Source: Mayamaea pseudoterrestris (taxonomy: Eukaryota). From it: a stretch of DNA of 44,239 nucleotides. Position 1 is the stretch's first letter; every line of letters begins with the position of its first letter. Under the pieces are notes generated by a model. It saw only the letters and a program-made list of their open reading frames with translations, ran no database searches and had not been told where the DNA came from. The DNA is taken from NCBI GenBank assembly GCA_027923505.1, contig BROI01000015.1:744001-788239 (forward strand), given 5' to 3'. A program made the translations under genes and the position numbers. Shown piece after piece: positions 2,975 through 29,852 of this stretch.

Positions 2975-4362
2975 AGCGTTTGTGCAGTAGGAATTGATGG
3001 TGGATGGTGTTCATGGCCGCAAGTCGAAAGCGTGCGTGCGTGAGTGCGTGCGTGCTTGAAGTCAGGTCTGTACCGGTACGACATAAATGCGATGAAAAAT
3101 AGCAAGCAGTCCAAGGCCTGGATGGAACTCAACACAAAAGGTGTCGCGGCGGGATCAATACTCAATGACAAAGCAAAACTAATTACACCGTTAGAACCTG
3201 CTTGACTTACTTAGTAGATCTAGTCCTTTAAATCAATGAAAACGGTCTACTATAAGCTTTAGAAGGCCAATGATTTGTGATGCGGGGTGGTGGGTCAATT
3301 TTTGAAAACTCTGCGTTAAGTCGCTGAATGAACAAAAACCCCAGAGCGTATACCGGTATGAGCGCACAATGCCCTGCCATTACCATGTCCAATGGCCAGC
3401 AACAAAGAATACAACGACAATGATGTAGGCCATTCAGTACACAACATGTCAAGAAACTCACACCATAATATTCCAATAATCTATAACATGCTTGCAGGAT
3501 TGGATCCTAAGCTTGCTCTCTTGATTCACACCACGGCTACTCAAGTTAGCAAAACAGCTACTCAAGTTAGCACCATGGCTGCTCAAGTTAGCCAGCAAGG
3601 TACTCAAGTTAGCCAGCAAGGTACCACCCTGGACACCATGGCCAAGAACGTCGGCAATACTTCGCAACTTGTCATTAGCATGAATAATGGTATGGCTAAC
3701 AACCATCAGGCCACCCTTGCCAACCAGACTGCCAACCAGCAGCAGATCCTTGACACCCTCACCAACCAGCCAACAACCCTTGTGCACCAGGAGCAGACCC
3801 TTGCCATTGTTGCCAACCAGGCTGCCAACCAGACGGAAAACCTTGCCAACCAGCGGCAGATCCTTGACATCCTTGCCAACCAGCCGAAAATTCTTGTGCA
3901 CCAGCGGCAGATCCTCACCAACCAGGATGCCAACAAGCGCACCACAACTGGGCAGCTCAACACTCTCCTGGCCAACCAGGCTGCCAACCTGACGGATAAC
4001 CTTGCCAACCAGAAGTAGATCCTTGACATCCTTGCCAACCAGCCGACGATCTTTTGCACCAGGAGCAGACCCTTGCCATCGTTGCCCTCCAGCAGCAGAT
4101 CCTCGACAACCAGCCAAAGATCCTGACCAACCAGGAGCAGATCCTCAACATCCTCGCCAACCAGCCGACGATCCTCACCAACCAGCAGCAGATCCTTGAC
4201 AACAACCAGCAGCAGATCCTCAACATCCTCACCAACCAGCCAACAATCCTCACCAACCAGCAGCAGATCCTTGACATCCTTGCCAACCAGCCGGATGTCC
4301 TCACCTGCCAGGAGCAGATCCTTGCCAACCAGCAGCAAATCCTCGCCAACCAGGCTGCCAAC

Positions 4363-4515
4363 AAGGATGCCACTACTGGGCAGCTCAACACTGTCCTTGC
4401 CAAACAGGATGCCACTACTGCGCAGCTCAACACTGTCCTTGCCAAACAGGATGCCACTACTGCGCAGCTCAACACAGTCCTTTCCAAACAGGATGCCACT
4501 ACTGAGCAGCTCAAA
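4363..4515 (+). repeat. 42-bp coding tandem repeat (KQDATTAQLNTVLA), about 3.5 copies
   Basis: CAGGATGCCACTACTGCGCAGCTCAACACTGTCCTTGCCAAA repeated near-perfectly. Confidence 0.9.
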
Positions 4516-4851
4516 TCTCTTCTTGCCAACCAGATGCAGATCCTTGCCAACCAGACTGCCAACACGCGGGTCATCAACGAGATGAATCAGACCATCAACC
4601 AGTCGAATCAGGCCATCACTAATGTGTACACGGCTATCGATACTAAATTCAACAGTTTCACTGAGCATATCACCGACAAGATGCGTCGCATGAATGACCA
4701 ATTCAGTACTTCTGTGCACACTTATCATGACTTGATGTTGCCGCCTCTTGCAAATATTGATACACGCATTGGTGAGGTTATGGTTGGGATGCAGGTCTTG
4801 CTTGGAGGCATGCAGGCAGGCCCAGCTGGTGTAGGCCAAGGCCAAGCTGGC

Positions 4852-5040
4852 GGCAACGAAGAAGCCGAGGTTGGCGCGGATGCTGAGGCAGGCGCCAACG
4901 AAGAAGCCGAGGTTGGCGCGGATGCTGAGGCGGGCGCCAATGAAGAAGCCAAGGTTGGTGCGGATGCTGAGGCAGGCGCCAACGAAGAAGCCAAGGTGGG
5001 CACCAACGAAGAAGCCGAGGTTGGCGCAAATGCTGAGGTG
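4852..5040 (+). repeat. 42-bp coding tandem repeat (NEEAEVGADAEAGA), about 4-5 copies
   Basis: AACGAAGAAGCCGAGGTTGGCGCGGATGCTGAGGCAGGCGCC repeated with few substitutions; one copy is shortened. Confidence 0.9.
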
Positions 5041-5526
5041 GGCGACATTGGAGCTGGTGAAGATGGTGCCAACAAAGACGCCGAAGATGGCGGCAACAAA
5101 GTTATCAAGGAGATTGACATTGCGGCAGATGCCTAAGACTTGAGTTCAAAGTTTGAACATGGAGGGACGGCGTTTGGAAGGGCCGTTTGTTGGTGGAACA
5201 ATATCATTACATGTTTATTTCATGGTCATTTGAGACTGTCGCTCAAGCTTGACGCAGCTTTGACCAATTATAGTTTTAGTTGATGACTATTTCAATATAC
5301 ATGTAGTTGTCGTCAAAGGTGATACATAGTAAAGTAGTTGATGCTGCTTACGGTAGCAAAGCCATGGCGAATCTCCGCGAGCCGCTCGTTTCCATGTCGC
5401 AGCGATTATAAATGAGTCATGCTGCGACGTTTTACGAGTTGGCAACTTGCAGCCATGAAGATTCCACTCGATTCTTTTGTTGGCATGTGTCTCTCCTTGC
5501 CGTTTACATTACCCTACACTAGCAAT

Positions 5527-16494: not shown

Positions 16495-16752
16495 ACAGTT
16501 GACGTACGTTGGGGAAAATCAAAGTTTTTGGCACCACTGTTCAAGCCACAGTCATCGTCCGTTGAAAATCAAAGTTTTTGGCACTACTGTTTGATAGACA
16601 GTCAGCGTACGTTGAAAATCAGAGTTTTTTGCACAACTGTTTAAGCAACAGTCATCGTCCGTTGAAAATCAAAGTTTTTGGCACTACTGTTTGTGCCACA
16701 GTCATCGTACGTTGAAAATCAAAGTTTTTGGCACCACTGTTTAAGCCACAGT
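16495..16752. repeat. Minisatellite, 5 x 50 bp, each unit with an ACTGT-N7-ACAGT dyad
   Basis: GAAAATC at 16514, 16564, 16614, 16664 and 16714; ACAGT at 16548, 16598, 16648, 16698 and 16748. Confidence 0.95.
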
Positions 16753-17180
16753 GGACCATCGACGACATGACTTCGATTACCCATCAAAATGACCCTGGCG
16801 AAAACAATCATCGGCCATGCGTATGGCGTCTTCATGCGTCTTTGTCCAGCCCATCCAGAGACAGCATACGAAGCTCAATAGGCGATCCCTGATACTGATA
16901 TAACTGTTTACCCTATATGGCGTGGACTACCGACTTGGTCTGGAATTTCAACAGTGCATGGCGCAGGCATTCATGCTTTCCCGCATGCACTCATACTACT
17001 AACTTGTCGGCTGCATTCCCTCAAGACGACCTAACGGTGCCCTTATTGTCGGTATCAAAGCGACACCGATTCGCGTAGATCTAGGCTTCTGTTTGTTCAT
17101 TAAGCAGCCTACTTTTGCGACGAGAGACACTTGAAATCGCAACTCTCGCAGGCGCAGGCCGACGCAGTCGATGACTTGTA

Positions 17181-17421
17181 TGATAAATAGCTGCTACTCT
17201 ATCCTATAGACTGTAATGGCCCGTTAGCGCCCAGGACAGAAGATAGCAACAACCCGAGTCCTTTCGAACAACAAGTGGTCCTCCGTCCCGTATTTCTAGT
17301 TGAGTTACCGCTATACTAAACTCGTCTCCGTCGACTAGTTAGTATCGCCTTCAGTGTACTCGGCCAGTACCGTTGCGTCAGTTGCAGCGTGTCACACTCT
17401 CCGGAAACCTAGTTTCTATCA
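17181..17421 (-). repeat. 3' LTR of outer copia element
   Basis: Matches 29612-29852 base for base on my reading; preceded in element orientation by the purine tract AAGAGGAG (17422-17429, PPT). Confidence 0.97.
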
Positions 17422-17510: not shown

Positions 17511-19832
17511 TTAGCCATGCATGAATCCGCCGACACACTTACTGAACGCCTTCTGCGTTTGCCCCTTCGTGAGGCAGTCTGCAAAGTTGTCCAATCCATC
17601 AATCTTGATAGGGTGGCAGATCCCTGCCGCTGACGCTTCTCGCGTTTTATGGTAAGCAATAGCAACATGCTTCTTCTTCAAGACGCTGCTGCTCAAGGTC
17701 GCGTTCTGAATAACGCCCATATTGTCACCACAAATGAAACTGGCCGTCGACACCTTGACGCCGAGGCATCGAAGCATATAACGTACAGCAATGAGCTCCT
17801 CTACAGCTGTCTTCATCGCACAGAATTCGGCTCCGTATGTGGACGTCTCTATTGCCCCTTGACGCTTGCTCATATACATGACTGGCGTCCGCCCGACGAC
17901 AATCAGCATCCCCGTTATGGACCGTCTTGTTAACTGATCGTGCGCATGATCAGAATCAACAAAGACTGTAATGAGCATCTCGTCTATAAGAGCTGGCGGA
18001 AGGCTCGCGTCAATCTCTTCGAACGCGTTAGCGTATTGCTCGGATAGCTCCTTGGTAAGATCCATCGCTCGCGAGTCTTCAGCGCCTGAATAAACTGGGT
18101 CTCTTGAATCAACGACGATCCTACGATTCGCTCGCTTCTTTAGATACCCAAATACTCGCAGCACTCGCTTGAGATGACCGTCCCTTGGAGCTGCAGTAAA
18201 TCTCGAGAGGGAGGACGTGGCGTGAGCGACATCAATTCGTCCAATCGTAACGATCCAAACGAGCATTCCAATCAACATTTGATACTTTCGATGCTCATCA
18301 TCATTAAGCATTGTACTCGTATCAATTTCGGGGTGGTCGCCTGTTTCAGTTGGATTCGTATACTTCTTGAGCATTCCAAACATGCGCTCGACCCGTTTGA
18401 TTGCTTCCGTCAAGTACTTCTTGCAACCGATGCACCATCGTCCTTTCCGATCCTTCTTATAATCATTACCCAAGTAGTAATCGGGAGGGCCGATGGATTT
18501 GACTGAATAGACGAGTTGAATGGCCTCCATTATTGCCTCTGGATTCTTGCCGACCAACATGAAATCGTCGACGTGAGTGCAAACGTATTCATAATGGCTG
18601 CCGTCTTCTGCAAGACGGATCCAAACATCCTTATCATATCCAGTAGGAACAAAGCCAAGGCCTCTGAGCGTATCGGCAAAGTGCGCGTGCCATCGTTTGC
18701 CCGAAGACGATAGCCCGTAAAGAGCCTTAACGATAATGACCACCTTGCCTTCAAGCTCTGGTCCAAACTCTGGTCCTGCAATAGCGTATACTTTTTCGTT
18801 AGTAAAAGCGTTCCGCGTAAGCATTAGCAACGTCGCCGCAAACTTGTCGAAGATTCGCCTTGTGAGCGATGACGTGGAGAAGCTTCACGCTGATGCCTTT
18901 TACCGTCGACGAGTATACGTTATGATCCAAAGCATCAATCAAATGGCCTCCAGCAACAAGCCTAGCTTTGCGCCGCATATCTTGTTTGACAGTAAAGATC
19001 ATCATGAGCGTAGTCTTCTGATAGCAAGAGTCGGGTACGAAACCGGCGCCCTTGAAATCAAAGCACTCGAGCTCCGTCAACGATCCAACCTCGGCCTTGA
19101 TAGCGTCTTGCCAATGTGTATCGCCGTTAGCTTCATCCAATCGAATAGCCTCTCGAACGTTCTTGGGTACTTGAACGCCGTACTTGAACTCTGGTTTAGC
19201 CGTGTACGTCTTCTTCTTCTTTCGATTCTGAGTCCGTCGAACAGCGTAAACTTCGTCGTTGTCGTCCAGATGAAAGTCATATAGTCTCGTCACTCGCCTC
19301 ACGGCTCGATTCAAGTCTCTAATAACCTTTGTAGCCCACGAAAGCGTTCGATCGGTTGCTCTGGCTCGAGTTACGTTCTTGTCGAGGATGTACTGAGCCG
19401 TCATCCTTGGATAATCTTCCTTCATGTCACGAAGCTCTTCCCAGGATTTCTGCTCCGTATTCCAAACGACTTGCAGTCGCAGTCGCCCTTCAGTCCATTC
19501 ATGACCAAGGATCGCTCGGAACACGCCAATGGATGGTTCGTTCTCGAGCGTGGAGGAATACGCGTTGTTAACTTCCTCCGCCATCTCGATTCCATCGTTC
19601 TCCAATGGATTGAAGCCTGGCAAAAGCTCCTCTCGAGACCGGCTCCCATTGTTAGCAGTGCTTGGCGTTCGGTTCTCCTCGTCTTCCTCTTCGTCCGACT
19701 CGTTGACCGTCTCGACCTCCACGTTGCGGTGGCTGCCGAGTCTATCCGAGGCTTCTGTTGAATCCAAATGGTCTTCCGCTGACTCGAACCTTACTCGCTT
19801 GTTCTGATTGCCTGTAGTAGCTGCGTCCGCTG
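17511..19832 (-). CDS. pol: Outer element pol, 3' part: linker, chromo-like domain, reverse transcriptase, RNase H; +1 frameshift at about 18813
   Basis: RKARLVAGGH, CGDVANAY, KALYGL, YVCTHVDDF, FVDSDHA..TRRSITG, ETSTYGAEF and NFADCLTK. TAC GCGG AAC contains one extra base between ORFs 18799-19767 and 17511-18830. Confidence 0.93.
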
Positions 19833-20076
19833 TGATAAGATGTAATTCAATAGCACCAGTCCAATAGAAGGCGAGCAGCTAGTATAAAGGCGATCAACCC
19901 TCTACAACAAGCAACAAGCAAACAACAAACCAATTTTTAGTAGACTGACTTAAAAAACAAACCACTCGAGGCAAATCCTTGATCGTGGACTGTCTTGTTT
20001 GCCCGTTGACACCGTAGTCATTTAGTCATAGGCTTAAATAATCATGTACACTGGTCACACACTTCAACTTCAATCA
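19833..20076 (-). repeat. 3' LTR of inner element (244 bp if GAAACGGGAA at 20077-20086 is the PPT)
   Basis: In element orientation reads TGATTG...CTTATCA; identical to 26115-26358. Confidence 0.85.
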
Positions 20077-20086
20077 TTCCCGTTTC

Positions 20087-22290
20087 AGAGTCCAGCCTTG
20101 TGCGACTCCATCATCCATCACAGTTTTGCCCCTCCAGAAAAGCATTGGCCAAATCATGGTCCAAACACAGGATGAGGAAGAAACTTGGTAAGCATATCAC
20201 TTGGATTCTGCTTGCCTGAGATGTGCTTGAAATGCAGCAGTCCAGAGGCAATGGCTTTGCAAACCCTGTGATACACAAGTGCATTTTGTCACTTGGTAAG
20301 CAATGAATGAGGAAAATTGATGAAGTGACAGTGCTCTCATTGTCTCAAAATATCCACGAGGGTCCATCCAATGGTGCACCCATCATACGCAGAGTGTACA
20401 GGAAATCCATAATTTGGTGGAGACAAACTTGGATCCATATGTATGTGGCTGTTTCAATTGTGTTCTGCCTCTTGGAGCACCACTCACCTTTAGTCTGGTT
20501 CAGAAATTGCAGGTCACCCATAGTAGTGTGACCCGTAGTGTAATCATGGTACAGGTTGGCATCTTCAAAAGTTGTCAGACAGATGAATTTGCCCTTAGCA
20601 TGGACATGTTCCATGGCTCTCATCAGCGCTGTCTCCATAGACAGTCTTGTTCCACTCCACTGGCTCAGGCACATCATGGTAAAGAATGCCTAAGCATTAC
20701 CTAACAGCATCATCTGGGTACCGAGCACAGTAGCCCACAATCCGCTTCAAACGCTTGAGATGGCCATACTGCAGTGCAACTTTAAAGCGACCCATAGTCA
20801 TCACAGCACAGTGAATATTATGACTACCTAAGCTTACCACCCACTGTAGAGCCCCAATCAAAAACTGATACATCCAAATACCCTTTGTATCCAATTCATT
20901 GGTCATACCAAGCGCAGGATGGTTGGAATTGTCTATGGGGGTGATATCCTTGGCTTTACCTTCTGCCAAACATGCTATCTCAGAAGGACTCTTACACCTT
21001 TAGTGCAGCGTCCAAATTCTTGTTCTTGAGCAGCCGACCAATGTAAGTCTTGGCACCCATACACAGCGTTCCATCAGGATTGTGGCAGATGTCTGCACCC
21101 AAAGATAGGAAATCATACCCACACCTTACAATTTGTAGTTGTACTTGGACTTGAGCTCATCGGTAAAGGCCTTGGGATCCTTCATCACCAAATCATTGAC
21201 AAAGACACACAGACACTCTCATAATGCGTCAAGCAGTCCTTGATCCAAATGTCGGCATCTGTGAAACACTGTGTAAAGCCCATATTTTACACAAAGTGTC
21301 AGCAAAATGTTCACAGTCAAGCCAGCACACACCGGAGGTCCACAATCCACACAGAGCCTTGTAGATAACCAGAGTGTGGCCTCCAAGCTCTCCAGATTCA
21401 GGATCAGCAACAATGCGGACCTTCTCCTTGGTGACTGCCTCCAATAGGCAATGCCATCATCAGTGCCCCAGAAATCCAAGCCACTTAATTTGGCAAATCC
21501 TTGGGAGGTTTATCATATGACCACCTGCAACAAGCCAAGCCTTGTGCCTCAAATCATGCTTGCAATTAAAAATTAAATGCACATTGATGCGCATTCAACT
21601 TGCATCCATGTGCCCCATGACCCTTGTCTTGGAAAGTATTGCACTCATTCAATTGATCCATCTTAATCTAGATGGCTTCTACCCAGAGCGTATTGCCATT
21701 GGCAGAGTCAAGACACCAAACTTGAATTGGTCTCCATGATTTGCTGATTGCTTGTGAGCAGCCTTGAGCATCCCTTTGAAATTGTTCTTGTGGCACGTAT
21801 ACATCTCTAACCATTTCCAACCAGGCTTAGAGAGCAGTCCATTGGCCTGTTCATAAGCAGCGAGTGTGATCAAATCATACTTAATCATCATGGCGAGAGG
21901 CTCCCATGTGTGCTGGCCACTCATCCATTGCACTAAGACATTGTAGTTAGACCCCTTGTAGTCAGCATCACAATGCATCAACAGTCTGGCATGCCCTTCA
22001 ATTGAATTAAATGGTTAGTGCATGGGTTGATCAAGTCAGATAGCTCATTGTAGGTGATGCTATGAGAACTTGAGGTGTTTGTGAGCAGCAGCATTGCAAT
22101 CGTTGATTTGCTTCACAATGGTGTAGTGCATACACTGCCATCCATCTCATCCAACAATACTGTGCATCCACGTAACTCATCTGGTGAGAAGAATGGAACA
22201 TGGTTGGTACCTGAACCTAAATTGAGTCCAGCAAGCTCAGCGCCAGACTCAAGGTTGAATGAGGATCCCCCATTGCTTGGTGCTCCACTT
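20087..22290 (-). pseudogene. Heavily decayed chromo-like/RT/RNase H region of the inner element
   Basis: Remnants YNVLVQW..GQHTWEPL, QFKFGV, KALCGLWTSG, VFVNDL (YVDD eroded, 21192-21203), YQFLIGALQW, SKRQNTIETATY and DMLTKFL amid many stops and deletions; strongly CpG-depleted. Confidence 0.9.
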
Positions 22291-25200
22291 GGCGCTTCGA
22301 TTGGATCCTCCTCGTCGACAGTCTCAACGACCACCGCTGGACGCGACTCCTCCCCCTCAGGGACTGACTGTGCTTCCGCGCGCAGGTTGCGCTCCCCAGG
22401 CGTGAATGGGCGCACATTGGAACGTGCCACAGCCTTACCAGTCTTGTCGCTCAATATCCAGTAGGTCAAGGCGTCACCCTTGTTCTCGGCGATACCAACC
22501 CATCGGCCAGTACCTTCATTGGACTCAGGAAAGCTAGCCGACTCGCTGGCATCCAGTTCATAGTACACTCGTTCCCACCAATGAAATTGCAAGTAGGCGG
22601 AAATATCAGGCTTGACATTGAAGGCAGCCTGCAAAGGCGTGCGCCAACCGAGGGACTCCGTCGCCAAATGGTTGAACAAACCGACAATGAACAAGGCACA
22701 CAAGAGCCAAGAGCCAGGCGGCGATCCAGTGCGGTTCATAGCACCTTCAACGGCAACTTTGACCTCCTGGATGCGGCGCTCGGCAGGATTCTGATTCTGA
22801 TAACCAGGCTCACTCTGTTGATCCTTGATGTTGTACATGCGAAGAATCGTTTCAACTTGCTTGCCCAACTGCACGCGAGAATTGTCGCTCATCAGAACAT
22901 TGGGCGCACCGACCTCACGGATGAAGTCCTCCAAGGTTTGCGGCATCTCAAACTCGTGACGCATCGGGTAGGCCTTGGTGAGCAGGGTGGACTTGCCCAC
23001 ATAGAGCTGGATCATGCGTGATCCCCCATGACCGGTAATGCCATCATCAAAAGCGGCATGCTCGGAGAAGAACGGGTCGGTAGCAAAGGTGTCATCGACA
23101 CGGCGGCAATTCGCTCCAGGGAAGCGAGTCTTCTTGTGGTGGCGGAACGGGACGTGAGCCGACGCGCGCCAGAAGGCCGTCGTGTTTTGCAAGGTCATCT
23201 TGACACGGTTCAAGGGCGTCCAACCAAGGTATGGCCGGAGCGCAGCATAGTCTGGCTGACGAGGCTGGATGTTGCGGGCATTGGCCTGTCGAGAGCAAGA
23301 AGTTGACTGCGACGCAACAAACATGAGACGTTCAACAGCAGTCATATGCTCGCGATACACGACATTACCATAGTCGTCGCATCGAGCATCCACAAAACCA
23401 AGGTCTTCATCTCGCACTGGAAGCTCCTCAATCGCATCGTCAGTCCATTCATTGTCAATGGAAGTTGGAGTCCAAGCTTGGTCCGCCGTGAAATCAACAT
23501 GAGGAAGCGAAGCAATCTCCTCATCCGTCGGAGGACGCATATCCATATGCGGCAAGCCATCGCGAATAGCTAACGGAATAGTCTTGCCACAAGCCGTAAC
23601 AATGCACTGACGGCCGCCATGCAAGCGCGGCAAGTCGTCAACCGTATGGCCGAAGGAACGGAGCTGCGCCGGTGAATGAATCGACTCAGCGCCGTCATAC
23701 AAGGCATACTGATGGAAGAAGCCGACAATGGCGCCACACCGGGTCTTGATGTAGGCCGCTCCCGTTCCAATCTGTAAACCATCCACAGACATGTCATTGA
23801 GGCCAGTGACATTGCAAAGCGCGTCAGTCGTCGACATTATGCGCATATCACTGCCGGCGAGGCCACCATTGGCTCCGCCATCAACCAGCGCTCCATTGCT
23901 GGCGGTGTGTCCACGGGCGTGTTGGACACGGTACTGAATGGCACGGCAAGCACGGTAAGTGCGGCCATCACTGCCAAGGAAAGACTGAACTGAGGCACCC
24001 GAGCTTGGGTTGCGCTGCTGAGCAGTCTGTGCCAGGAATTCTCGCATAAAAGTGCCAGGCTGGGGAGGAGGAGTGGCGCCAGGGGCGACAGAGCCTCCGT
24101 CATTGGGAAACAACACAACTCCAGGGACTTGACTGCTAGCTGGAGCAGGAGCAGGAGCAGGAGTAGACGCCGGAGGAGCGGCTTGACCACCGCCACCTTG
24201 ACGCGCTGCATTGGCTTGGCGTTGCCGAGGCGGCGGGCGCGGGATCCGACTGCGTGCCTCCATCACTTGGGTGAGCTCCCCAGAATCTCGCAACGCGTTG
24301 TACCGGTCCTGTGACAAGAAGGACCAGGGTTGCTGCAACAGTTGAGCCAGAGTCATACTGTCGCCAGGATTGGGACGGTTGGCGTCGCCACCGCGTCCCC
24401 CATTGCCGCGGCCTCCATTGCCACGGCCTCCACCACCACCGCGACCAGCTCCACCGTCACGGCCTCCACCTCGCCCTCCACTGGATTGCTTGGCGGAATT
24501 GGCACTTCTTTTAGCATTAGACTTGGTCTTCTCGTTGACTTGATCCATTTCCAAGGCTTGGCGACACAAATGATTGTACAAATGGTCATAGTCGGAACCG
24601 TCGTCAGGGCTTGGCTCACCGCCGGCGAGAGACGCACGGTAGGCGGCAAAAGAATCAAACTGATTAACGGACGCCTTCATCTCGACATTGGCTTGCACCG
24701 CAGAGCGAAGCCATTGATAGCGCTTGGACTTGGTTACACTTGCCGGACGGAACTCCTCGAGCTGCTGAGTCAATTCATATTGATAGACAATGAACTTGTA
24801 GGCTCCTTTAGACCAGCTCGCGTCGAACTTGAGCGTATTCAACTTGAGCTCCAGTTCATCGGCACGTAGGTTGCCGGCAGTGCCACTGCCGAACTGCAAT
24901 GCAAGATCCTTGAAGACTGCCTGAGCGTCGAGGGTCTTGCCATGTTTTGTCAATATACTGTTGGCGCCAGGAACCTTGAGAATGTGACGGAAGGCGGTGT
25001 ACATGAAGATGTTCATATCCTCGAACTCGGCCTTGTCTCGGTCCGTTGACGGCTTGTAGGAAGCATCCAACACTTTGCTGCAGCCATGGAGGCGAGCGAG
25101 AGTGTGGACTCCTTGGCTCCAATTGTACCAATGAGCGGGGTTGCTAAACTCTTTGTAATCCTTGTGGTCGCGTTTCGACTTGCCAATGTTGAATCGAGTC

Positions 25201-25700
25201 GACTGGGCTTCAGTATCATTGGCGGCGACACTAGCGGCGGCTGTATTGCCCGAGGCGACGGCCTCAGCGAACTTTGCAGCGGCCTCCGCGGAACTCTTGG
25301 CGGATTCCACAGCAGCCAAATTGGCGGCGGCGACTTGCTCCTTCTCGGCAATCACGGCCGCACTTTCGGCAAGGAACAGACTCTCTTGGAACTCGGCAAA
25401 CATGTCGGGTGACAACTCCAGCCAAGTCTCGAACGTCGGGTTGGCTCGACTGGCGTACCAGGCCTTACAATCTTCGACGGTCGTCCGCTCAGACTCAACA
25501 AGAAACATTGCTTCATCATCGTCGGGCACTCGATACTCCGATGACAGGACTTCCTTGGACATTCGAAGCATGAGGACGGGCGTTGTAATTCGCCAGCTTG
25601 CAAATGCTGCAGCATAACAAGGCGCTGCAAGCACTGTGGCGAACAAATGGTCCATGACTTGCTTATCCTTGGCGGCGCGAGTCGTCATGGTCGTCGACAT
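22113..25700 (-). CDS. Inner element gag-protease-integrase polyprotein (about 1195 aa; last ~60 aa lie in decayed sequence)
   Basis: Uninterrupted ORF with protease ALVDGGANGG, integrase FATDPFF / LMSDNS / QNPAERRIQEVK and GRWVGIAENKGDALTYWIL; RGG-rich segment at the end of Gag. Confidence 0.95.
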   Translation of the reverse strand: MSTTMTTRAAKDKQVMDHLFATVLAAPCYAAAFASWRITTPVLMLRMSKEVLSSEYRVPDDDEAMFLVESERTTVEDCKAWYASRANPTFETWLELSPDMFAEFQESLFLAESAAVIAEKEQVAAANLAAVESAKSSAEAAAKFAEAVASGNTAAASVAANDTEAQSTRFNIGKSKRDHKDYKEFSNPAHWYNWSQGVHTLARLHGCSKVLDASYKPSTDRDKAEFEDMNIFMYTAFRHILKVPGANSILTKHGKTLDAQAVFKDLALQFGSGTAGNLRADELELKLNTLKFDASWSKGAYKFIVYQYELTQQLEEFRPASVTKSKRYQWLRSAVQANVEMKASVNQFDSFAAYRASLAGGEPSPDDGSDYDHLYNHLCRQALEMDQVNEKTKSNAKRSANSAKQSSGGRGGGRDGGAGRGGGGGRGNGGRGNGGRGGDANRPNPGDSMTLAQLLQQPWSFLSQDRYNALRDSGELTQVMEARSRIPRPPPRQRQANAARQGGGGQAAPPASTPAPAPAPASSQVPGVVLFPNDGGSVAPGATPPPQPGTFMREFLAQTAQQRNPSSGASVQSFLGSDGRTYRACRAIQYRVQHARGHTASNGALVDGGANGGLAGSDMRIMSTTDALCNVTGLNDMSVDGLQIGTGAAYIKTRCGAIVGFFHQYALYDGAESIHSPAQLRSFGHTVDDLPRLHGGRQCIVTACGKTIPLAIRDGLPHMDMRPPTDEEIASLPHVDFTADQAWTPTSIDNEWTDDAIEELPVRDEDLGFVDARCDDYGNVVYREHMTAVERLMFVASQSTSCSRQANARNIQPRQPDYAALRPYLGWTPLNRVKMTLQNTTAFWRASAHVPFRHHKKTRFPGANCRRVDDTFATDPFFSEHAAFDDGITGHGGSRMIQLYVGKSTLLTKAYPMRHEFEMPQTLEDFIREVGAPNVLMSDNSRVQLGKQVETILRMYNIKDQQSEPGYQNQNPAERRIQEVKVAVEGAMNRTGSPPGSWLLCALFIVGLFNHLATESLGWRTPLQAAFNVKPDISAYLQFHWWERVYYELDASESASFPESNEGTGRWVGIAENKGDALTYWILSDKTGKAVARSNVRPFTPGERNLRAEAQSVPEGEESRPAVVVETVDEEDPIEAPSGAPSNGGSSFNLESGAELAGLNLGSGTNHVPFFSPDELRGCTVLLDEMDGSVCTTPL

Positions 25701-26100
25701 TCTTGTCAATCAATCAATCAATCAATCACTTGGATGAATACCTCGCTTGCGGCGCGAGTCGTTCCAGGAACAATGGCAATGGCAGACGAGACGCGGCAAG
25801 CAGTCGGTCGGCAGGAGACTCCTTTTGAAGAACTGTTTATAACTTGACACCGAGTATTCGAACGGCGGCAGGCGACAGCAGGATGGTCTCTCGAGTGCTA
25901 AAGGCCAGTAAATCGAATGAGATAGACTGGTTGAGTAGCACCGTTCAATTAATCAAACAAAGATTCAATTGAACAAAGGCAAAGGCAAAGGCAATGGCAA
26001 AGGCACAAACGAGGAGGATTCGTCAATCCGTTTCGTCGTCCAAAAAAGCAATCAAAACAAGCCAAACAAACCACCACACTCGAGGTTTAAGGCAAGATCA

Positions 26101-26114
26101 CAAGACTGTTAATC
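26101..26114 (-). promoter_or_regulatory. Primer binding site of inner element, complementary to a tRNA-Asn(GTT) anticodon arm
   Basis: Plus strand reads CAAGA-CTGTTAA-TC directly against the LTR, i.e. tRNA positions 27-40 with a GTT anticodon. Confidence 0.75.
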
Positions 26115-26358
26115 TGATAAGATGTAATTCAATAGCACCAGTCCAATAGAAGGCGAGCAGCTAGTATAAAGGCGATCAACCCTCTACAACAAGCAACAAG
26201 CAAACAACAAACCAATTTTTAGTAGACTGACTTAAAAAACAAACCACTCGAGGCAAATCCTTGATCGTGGACTGTCTTGTTTGCCCGTTGACACCGTAGT
26301 CATTTAGTCATAGGCTTAAATAATCATGTACACTGGTCACACACTTCAACTTCAATCA
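26115..26358 (-). repeat. 5' LTR core of inner element (terminal repeat may extend to 26436)
   Basis: Identical to 19833-20076; identity continues 10 bp further to 26368; the TSD is reached only at 26437. Confidence 0.85.
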
Positions 26359-26436
26359 TTCCCGTTTCGAACATGGTATTCAATAACGATCCATGTCGCA
26401 TAAGACGCAGGCTCTCCATTCGCCTACATCGCGTCA

Positions 26437-29558: not shown

Positions 29559-29600
29559 GTTTATCTTTCTGGTTTCGTTTGTGACAGTGATACAGACTAC

Positions 29601-29611
29601 GTCTCATAAGC
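29601..29611 (-). promoter_or_regulatory. Primer binding site of outer element, complementary to a non-initiator CAT-anticodon tRNA arm
   Basis: Plus strand reads GT-CTCATAA-GC directly against the LTR, i.e. tRNA positions 30-40; it lacks the GGG/CCC stem of initiator tRNA. Confidence 0.7.
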
Positions 29612-29852
29612 TGATAAATAGCTGCTACTCTATCCTATAGACTGTAATGGCCCGTTAGCGCCCAGGACAGAAGATAGCAACAACCCGAGTCCTTTCGAAC
29701 AACAAGTGGTCCTCCGTCCCGTATTTCTAGTTGAGTTACCGCTATACTAAACTCGTCTCCGTCGACTAGTTAGTATCGCCTTCAGTGTACTCGGCCAGTA
29801 CCGTTGCGTCAGTTGCAGCGTGTCACACTCTCCGGAAACCTAGTTTCTATCA
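29612..29852 (-). repeat. 5' LTR of outer copia element
   Basis: 241 bp, identical to 17181-17421. Confidence 0.97.

Follow-up and report, generated by a model that had tools for sequence, protein, structure and literature searches.

What primes the reverse transcription of an LTR retrotransposon that lacks a TGG beside its 5' LTR? The question is raised by an LTR retrotransposon, the inner one of a nested pair on the minus strand, in a 44,239-nt stretch of DNA (the whole of which we call the window). An earlier reading made from the letters alone (the sequence-only reading) had noted the missing TGG, and none is indeed present in the first 14 nt inside the 5' LTR of this element.

Kind and state of the inner element

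The inner element is bounded by a 254-nt repeat in direct orientation whose two copies are 100% identical (Table 1), and the long minus-strand ORF at 22113-25709 identifies the copy at 26115-26368 as the 5' LTR. A Pfam search with this ORF and six pieces of the element returned 0 families. A search with residues 600-1198 of the ORF product (P0001) yielded 114 relatives of at most 48% identity, mostly 1300-2000 aa long and carrying the copia-type reverse transcriptase (RT) domain PF07727 (Pfam RVT_2) downstream of integrase, with the integrase core PF00665 in a few; one relative bears the name of the diatom Mayamaea pseudoterrestris. A flanking host gene encodes a carotenoid oxygenase, and its nearest Atlas clusters are mostly Bacillariophyta; the host is thus probably a diatom. 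The intact 1974-aa polyprotein of a related contig, C631, is colinear with the inner element over C631 aa 486-1831. Judged by the domains of its relatives and by this colinearity, the inner element is a Ty1/copia-type (Pseudoviridae) LTR retrotransposon, with integrase before RT.

The two LTRs show no difference in 254 nt, from which the insertion is young. Alignment of the C631 polyprotein by tblastn produced six pieces in frames 3, 2, 3, 1, 3 and 2, i.e., five frame changes between 22029 and 20113, indicating by comparison with the intact C631 that the RT/RNase H region is broken despite the identical LTRs. Either the element is a defective genome mobilised by the enzymes of another copy, or its LTRs have been homogenised. 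Ty1/copia elements are flanked by target-site duplications of 4-6 bp, in most cases 5. No such duplication is present at the inner element (CGCTG at 19828-19832 vs GAACA at 26369-26373), and the base outside the repeat is T (20087) before the 3' LTR, giving TG...CA ends, and C (26369) before the 5' LTR. These mismatched flanks suggest an aberrant insertion, an adjacent deletion, or recombination between copies. Purines do not predominate right beside the 3' LTR; a purine-rich run is first reached about 20 nt away, and no clear polypurine tract abuts the LTR. With no duplication, no clear polypurine tract and a broken RT, this particular copy may at no time have been primed by enzymes of its own.

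Table 1. Positions of the features discussed, in window coordinates, and the leaders of related contigs.
Feature	Position	Strand	Sequence or basis
Inner element, 5' LTR	26115..26368	minus	254 nt, 100% identity with 19833-20086; coding strand minus
Inner element, 3' LTR	19833..20086	minus	100% identical repeat of 26115-26368
Gag-protease-integrase ORF, P0001, 1198 aa	22113..25709	minus	relatives; colinear with C631 polyprotein
Reverse transcriptase/RNase H region, broken, five reading-frame changes	20113..22029	minus	tblastn with C631 polyprotein
Putative core primer-binding site (PBS)	26101..26114	minus	element RNA GATTAACAGTCTTG; complement (plus strand) CAAGACTGTTAATC, matching tRNA-Asn(GUU) positions 27-40
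Spacer, 7 nt, between core and second block	26094..26100	minus	AAGATCA; sequence
D-arm-like block, candidate second tRNA contact	26084..26093	minus	GGTTTAAGGC on the plus strand
Outer element, putative PBS	29598..29611	minus	complement TACGTCTCATAAGC; CAT (Met) anticodon arm whose end lies 2 nt beyond the loop, flush with 5' LTR 29612-29852
C214 leader			block TTGGTTAAAGCG; spacer 4 nt
C379 leader			block TTGGCTAAGCGAGCG; spacer 4 nt
C438/C803 leaders			only GGCG; spacer 3 nt
C887 leader			CTCAGCGGTAGTGAC, a different D-arm-like stretch; spacer 2 nt

The anticodon arm beside the 5' LTR

The plus strand reads GGTTTAAGGCAAGATCACAAGACTGTTAATC at 26084-26114, and the 254-nt repeat starts at 26115, so that the last 14 nt of this stretch (the 14-mer) adjoin the LTR without a gap. 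The sequence-only reading had seen in them CAAGA-CTGTTAA-TC, an anticodon arm with a GTT loop that ends at tRNA position 40, and this description proved exact. CAAGA (26101-26105) forms the stem strand, CTGTTAA (26106-26112) a 7-nt loop with GTT in the middle, and TC (26113-26114) pairs back to the GA of CAAGA, as expected of positions 39-40. The loop features C32, U33 and A37 flank GTT, and there are two closing pairs. Counting both strands, the window contains a single copy of the 11-mer GACTGTTAATC, with 0.03 occurrences expected (100 shuffles, of which 3 contained a match). At one fixed place an exact 11-mer has p = 2.4e-7, or about 3.6e-5 when some 50 anticodon loops and 3 offsets are allowed. 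A structural scan for anticodon arms in the first 400 nt of each of the two window elements revealed exactly one match in both, in each case at the LTR end, where the chance of a structural match at one fixed place is 0.0088 per element.

ARAGORN found no tRNA gene in the window. The tRNA-Asn genes used for comparison come from other organisms, and the host's own arm may differ from theirs. Scanning metagenomes with a pattern composed of the D-arm motif, a short gap and GACTGTTAATC returned at least 120 matches at at least 114 loci; 113 of the 120 matches listed had the tRNA-like spacing of 24-25 nt, and no element-type site was present among the matches listed. In 17 of the 20 metagenome loci checked, the match coincided with an ARAGORN tRNA-Asn(gtt). 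Two near-identical gene types (10 loci) read TAAGACTGTTAATCTTG, which agrees with the window at 13 of 14 positions. The exception is position 27, where T stands in the retrieved eukaryote-type tRNA-Asn genes and C in the window 14-mer. The fully paired 17-nt arm CAAGACTGTTAATCTTG occurs at 57 loci of a viral collection, with an ARAGORN tRNA-Asn(gtt) in 10 of the 14 checked, and the window 14-mer matches at 14 of 14 positions within the exact arm of these genes, which lie on phage or giant-virus contigs, not diatom ones. The sequence-only reading had staked itself on host tRNA-Asn carrying this arm; in the genes of other organisms, all 14 positions agree in some cases and 13 of 14 in the eukaryote-type genes. 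When the contigs of sequencing runs X1, X2, X6 and X7 were searched at 80% likeness with a 74-nt tRNA-Asn gene (L030:984-1057), 0 matched.

A near-identical stretch that contains the exact 17-nt Asn arm is common to five viral contigs (L136, L137, L145, L148 and L166); in L137, the one checked, ARAGORN makes no tRNA call. A search for integrase in L137, L148, L166 and two tRNA-bearing viral contigs was negative in all 5 records, and viral contigs contained no relatives of the inner element by protein, by a 19-mer made of the LTR end and the PBS, or by a 20-mer that includes the LTR start.

The same 19-mer hit 4 loci in a prokaryote genome collection, which is about the chance expectation; two of these are in G001, a record labelled as a Sphingobacteriaceae metagenome-assembled genome (behind L115 and L117). 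The inner integrase region has 40 matches in G001 (best identity 48%), with ORFs of up to 1988 aa; the retrotransposon contigs of this record include C214, C225, C379 and C631. G001 is evidently contaminated with eukaryotic retrotransposon contigs, probably derived from a diatom. The 11-mer has 6 matches in G001 vs 1 for a reversed control, one of the 6 being a bacterial tRNA-Asn. At the other 5 sites the 11-mer is preceded by CAA, giving the identical 14-mer, and directly followed by TG or TT, as at an LTR junction. The sites in C214 and C379 lie 52 and about 115 nt upstream of intact gag-pol ORFs of 1940 aa and 1747 aa, respectively, whose integrases are 40% and whose gags are 25-28% identical to those of the inner element. 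No gag ORF was found in the short contigs C438, C803 and C887, in which the LTR junction is therefore read from the sequence pattern alone; C438 and C803 are sisters of each other. Because the 19-mer that first led to C214 and C887 contains the PBS, the identity of these two is partly by design, which leaves C379 and the C438/C803 pair as sites fully independent of the pattern.

Among relatives with a 5' end the closest is C631 (integrase 48% identical); it has no recognisable Asn-type PBS, and its structural scan gave one match (a GGT loop) at chance level; this fits the primer switching in the literature. No eukaryotic tRNA-Asn was found in G001, where the only real tRNA-Asn among 30 tRNA matches is bacterial-type (C529). 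In C887, a 1233-nt contig without gag, the minus strand of locus L124 carries at 674-745, about 230 nt from the Asn-type site, a sequence resembling a decayed tRNA. ARAGORN calls it tRNA-Asn, but its loop is abnormal and its acceptor stem unpaired. L124 may be a non-autonomous element that carries a tRNA-derived sequence.

The outer element offers an internal control. Its LTRs, 241 nt each (17181-17421 and 29612-29852), are 100% identical, and TACA flanks it on both sides. Of 13 viral loci with the arm ACGTCTCATAAGCGT, 5 have it within a tRNA-Met gene called by ARAGORN, and the outer-type site GTCTCATAAGC has 0 matches in G001. Outer and inner elements are only distant kin (best local match 33% over 81 aa), yet their Met and Asn arms, both flush with the LTR, show the same half-tRNA geometry, with different tRNAs, within one locus. 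Three G-C pairs next to the anticodon loop mark initiator tRNAs. The stem of the outer arm does not have three G-C pairs beside its loop, from which the outer primer may be an elongator tRNA-Met. The half-tRNA geometry proposed by the sequence-only reading thus holds at the inner element, at the outer element and at related elements elsewhere.

Priming by a tRNA-Asn half and the alternatives

Taken together, the anatomy of the site, the matches to tRNA-Asn arms, the outer-element control and the conservation in diverged relatives support well the proposal, already made in the sequence-only reading, that a tRNA-Asn half serves as primer. From these comparisons of sequence, the inner element probably primes from a 3'-truncated tRNA-Asn(GUU) cut after position 40. 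The element RNA directly after U5, GAUUAACAGUCUUG, would pair with positions 27-40 of cytoplasmic tRNA-Asn(GUU), i.e., with the 5' strand of the anticodon stem, the entire loop and two bases of the 3' strand, and host tRNA-Asn would accordingly be predicted to read CAAGACUGUUAAUC at these positions. For DNA synthesis to begin, a 3'-OH has to face the final base of the LTR. A tRNA-Asn severed within its anticodon stem, just after position 40, would provide it, as a 5' half some 40-41 nt long. We infer the presence of the arm in host tRNA-Asn, the cleavage of this tRNA, the cleaving enzyme and the timing of the cut. The 14-nt length could also be taken for a block to copying at modified G26; we do not rely on this reading, because the Ty1 primer sequence is reported not to be inherited.

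Would the same half hold on at a second place? A D-loop-like block 7 nt further inward, at 26084-26093, was read correctly from the letters, and the second contact with the D arm that was proposed from it is no more than suggestive. After a short unpaired spacer opposite position 26, the block would pair with the D arm of the same half, for which the host D loop and stem would read GGUU(U)AAGGC. In eukaryote-type tRNA-Asn, GGTTAAGGC stands 4 nt before GACTGTTAATC in 90 of the 120 matches listed, where the search pattern itself required the motif. The window block is of the GGTTAAGGC type but longer by one T, and 7 nt come after it where the tRNA has position 26 alone; the D-arm-like blocks of the relatives have spacers of 2-4 nt. 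Two copies of CAAGA, at 26093-26097 and 26101-26105, are separated by 3 nt, so that the D-arm-like block is directly followed by a second anticodon-stem strand, which offers an alternative register of pairing with the tRNA.

We aligned locally the 45 nt inside each core with the 5' parts of 30 eukaryote-type tRNA-Asn genes and compared the scores with those of 300 shuffles. The observed score was reached by 12 of 300 shuffles for the window, 3 for C214, 22 for C379, 265 for C438, 297 for C803 and 184 for C887. A Fisher combination over five independent leaders gave p = 0.015; when the window was left out, its motif having shaped the panel, p was 0.047. A D-arm-like block is present in 3 of the 5 independent leaders. 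Against 14 tRNA-Asn genes with a CAAGA arm, only C887 stood out (4/300; window: 298/300). The cofold energy of the extended duplex was not significant (-34.8 kcal/mol vs -32.5 on average in the shuffles, with an sd of 3.0; an energy as low was reached by 105 of 500). On the sequence comparisons, a second anchor for the tRNA half in the D-arm-like block is possible, though doubtful, and such a contact would depend on a host D arm of the GGTT(T)AAGGC type. If the two-part site is true, only a cleaved or unfolded tRNA-Asn half would be loadable. Diatom copia elements are stress-activated. That there is a clade of diatom copia elements with a two-part site (14-nt core and D-arm block for the same 5' half), which would tie their mobilisation to the supply of tRNA halves from stress cleavage, strikes us as unlikely.

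Other explanations of the site start from the same sequence. As in Tf1, the 5' end of the element's own transcript might fold onto the PBS and be cut, the likeness to tRNA-Asn being incidental. Such folding could use 26271-26280 (minus strand), inside the 5' LTR, which is complementary at 9 of 10 positions to 26100-26109 (pair I4; estimated chance about 0.04) and which lies, in element sense, 42 nt after a TATTTAAG motif and could thus be near the transcript start. Pair I4, however, has an internal mismatch and covers only 10 relevant bases, and the same 339 nt contain five inverted pairs of similar size. Three relatives with at least 218 nt upstream (L121, L123 and L124) have no complement of at least 8 nt with at most 1 mismatch, and self-priming leaves unexplained both the exact tRNA-Asn arm and the Met arm of the outer element at the same place; we regard it as very improbable. 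The complement between 26271-26280 and 26100-26109 could be an intramolecular stem that hides the PBS, or chance.

It is also conceivable, if improbable, that RNA derived from tRNA-Asn binds here mainly for silencing by tRNA fragments, or that a full-length tRNA is cut only after annealing. Fragments of about 19 nt of the "D loop/anticodon" type have been described in a diatom, in 9 cases (Rogato 2014, PMC4247016), and an extended D-arm-like block would favour the annealing of a longer molecule; under both versions replication would still need a 3'-OH flush with the LTR. A likeness by chance, or a dead relic in which the LTR-adjacent sequence of a defective copy has no function, would be in keeping with the five frame changes in RT/RNase H and the missing target-site duplication. 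This explanation is extremely improbable in view of the identity of the LTRs, which makes the insertion young, of the motif's chance at the LTR-adjacent place (about 3.6e-5), and of the identical 14-mer in elements with intact ORFs of 1747 aa and 1940 aa. Priming by a cut tRNA-Asn remains our preferred reading.

Comparison with known half-tRNA primers

Half-tRNA priming is known but uncommon. It is stated for Drosophila copia and yeast Ty5, with a PBS complementary to the tRNA anticodon stem-loop, and is given in the ICTV profile as the criterion that separates hemiviruses. Like these two (genus Hemivirus, Pseudoviridae), the inner element belongs to the copia superfamily and has a putative anticodon-arm PBS flush with its 5' LTR, a likeness of PBS type; unlike them, for which the primer is initiator tRNA-Met, its loop is GTT (Asn).

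The sequence-only reading knew of no description of this primer, and its apparent novelty is not borne out. For rust fungi, tRNA-Asn-GTT is reported to have been adopted once as primer in fungal Helenus, and rust-fungus Helenus and Copia elements have PBSs complementary to anticodon loops (Kojima 2024, PMC10886601); section 3.6 of that paper gives "tRNA-Asp" in two places and "tRNA-Asn-GTT" in another. According to its supplement, the internal sequence of Helenus-3_PGr starts with c followed by GATTAACAGTCG, so that this element and the inner element have a common 11-nt core, GATTAACAGTC. Helenus-3_PGr differs in its fungal host, in being non-autonomous and in its tRNA-like LTR; it has one base between LTR and core and the stem bases CG, whereas the window site is flush with the LTR and has CAAGA. 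Since a tRNA-Asn half primer is already in print for fungi, the primer type itself is not new.

The tRNAs for Ile, Lys, Tyr and Arg have likewise been published as sources of half-tRNA primers. In plants, 1/2 tRNA-Ile is given for Bianca and 1/2 tRNA-Met for Osser, Bryco and Gymco-II, with half-tRNA priming known only within Ty1/copia; the PBS of fungal FunCo1 matches an internal region of tRNA-Lys; and families of Candida have PBSs that match internal regions of tRNA-Arg(UCU) and iMet, tRNA-Arg UCU being that of the gamma/Tca2 class. All of these resemble the inner element in their internal-tRNA PBSs and differ in tRNA and host, i.e., the half-tRNA species varies by lineage. The Candida gamma LTR belongs to Tca2. 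For the candidate second contact, the analogue would be the bipartite PBSs described for Ty1 and Ty3, in which, besides the main PBS, further parts of the template base-pair with the tRNA at its D and T arms; 26084-26093 would correspond to these extra boxes. Unlike the inner element with its anticodon-arm site, Ty1 and Ty3 prime from the intact 3' end of the tRNA.

Among diatom elements, the CoDi families (Maumus 2009, PMC2806351) are copia-like, as is the inner element. The main text of that paper has 0 occurrences of "tRNA" and uses "PBS" only for a buffer, and the CoDi primers are not described there. No description of a primer for diatom elements was found in the full-text literature covered, which leaves out most subscription journals and some supplements. 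The site in the window would add tRNA-Asn to the half-tRNA primers outside fungi, in a probable diatom lineage, and one locus would hold two nested elements that use two different tRNA halves, Asn and Met. Annotation pipelines whose search is confined to tRNA 3'-end complements will record "no PBS" in families of this kind, for which the identical 14-mer, kept at only 40% integrase identity, provides a simple handle. Should both the second contact and the link to tRNA cleavage be true, they would provide a route, open to testing, by which stress leads to retrotransposition in diatoms.

Elsewhere in the window, four tandem 50-nt repeats lie at 16514-16763, just beyond the 3' end of the outer element, and coding-looking sequence at 3711-5069 contains extensive periodic repeats of 21-42 nt.
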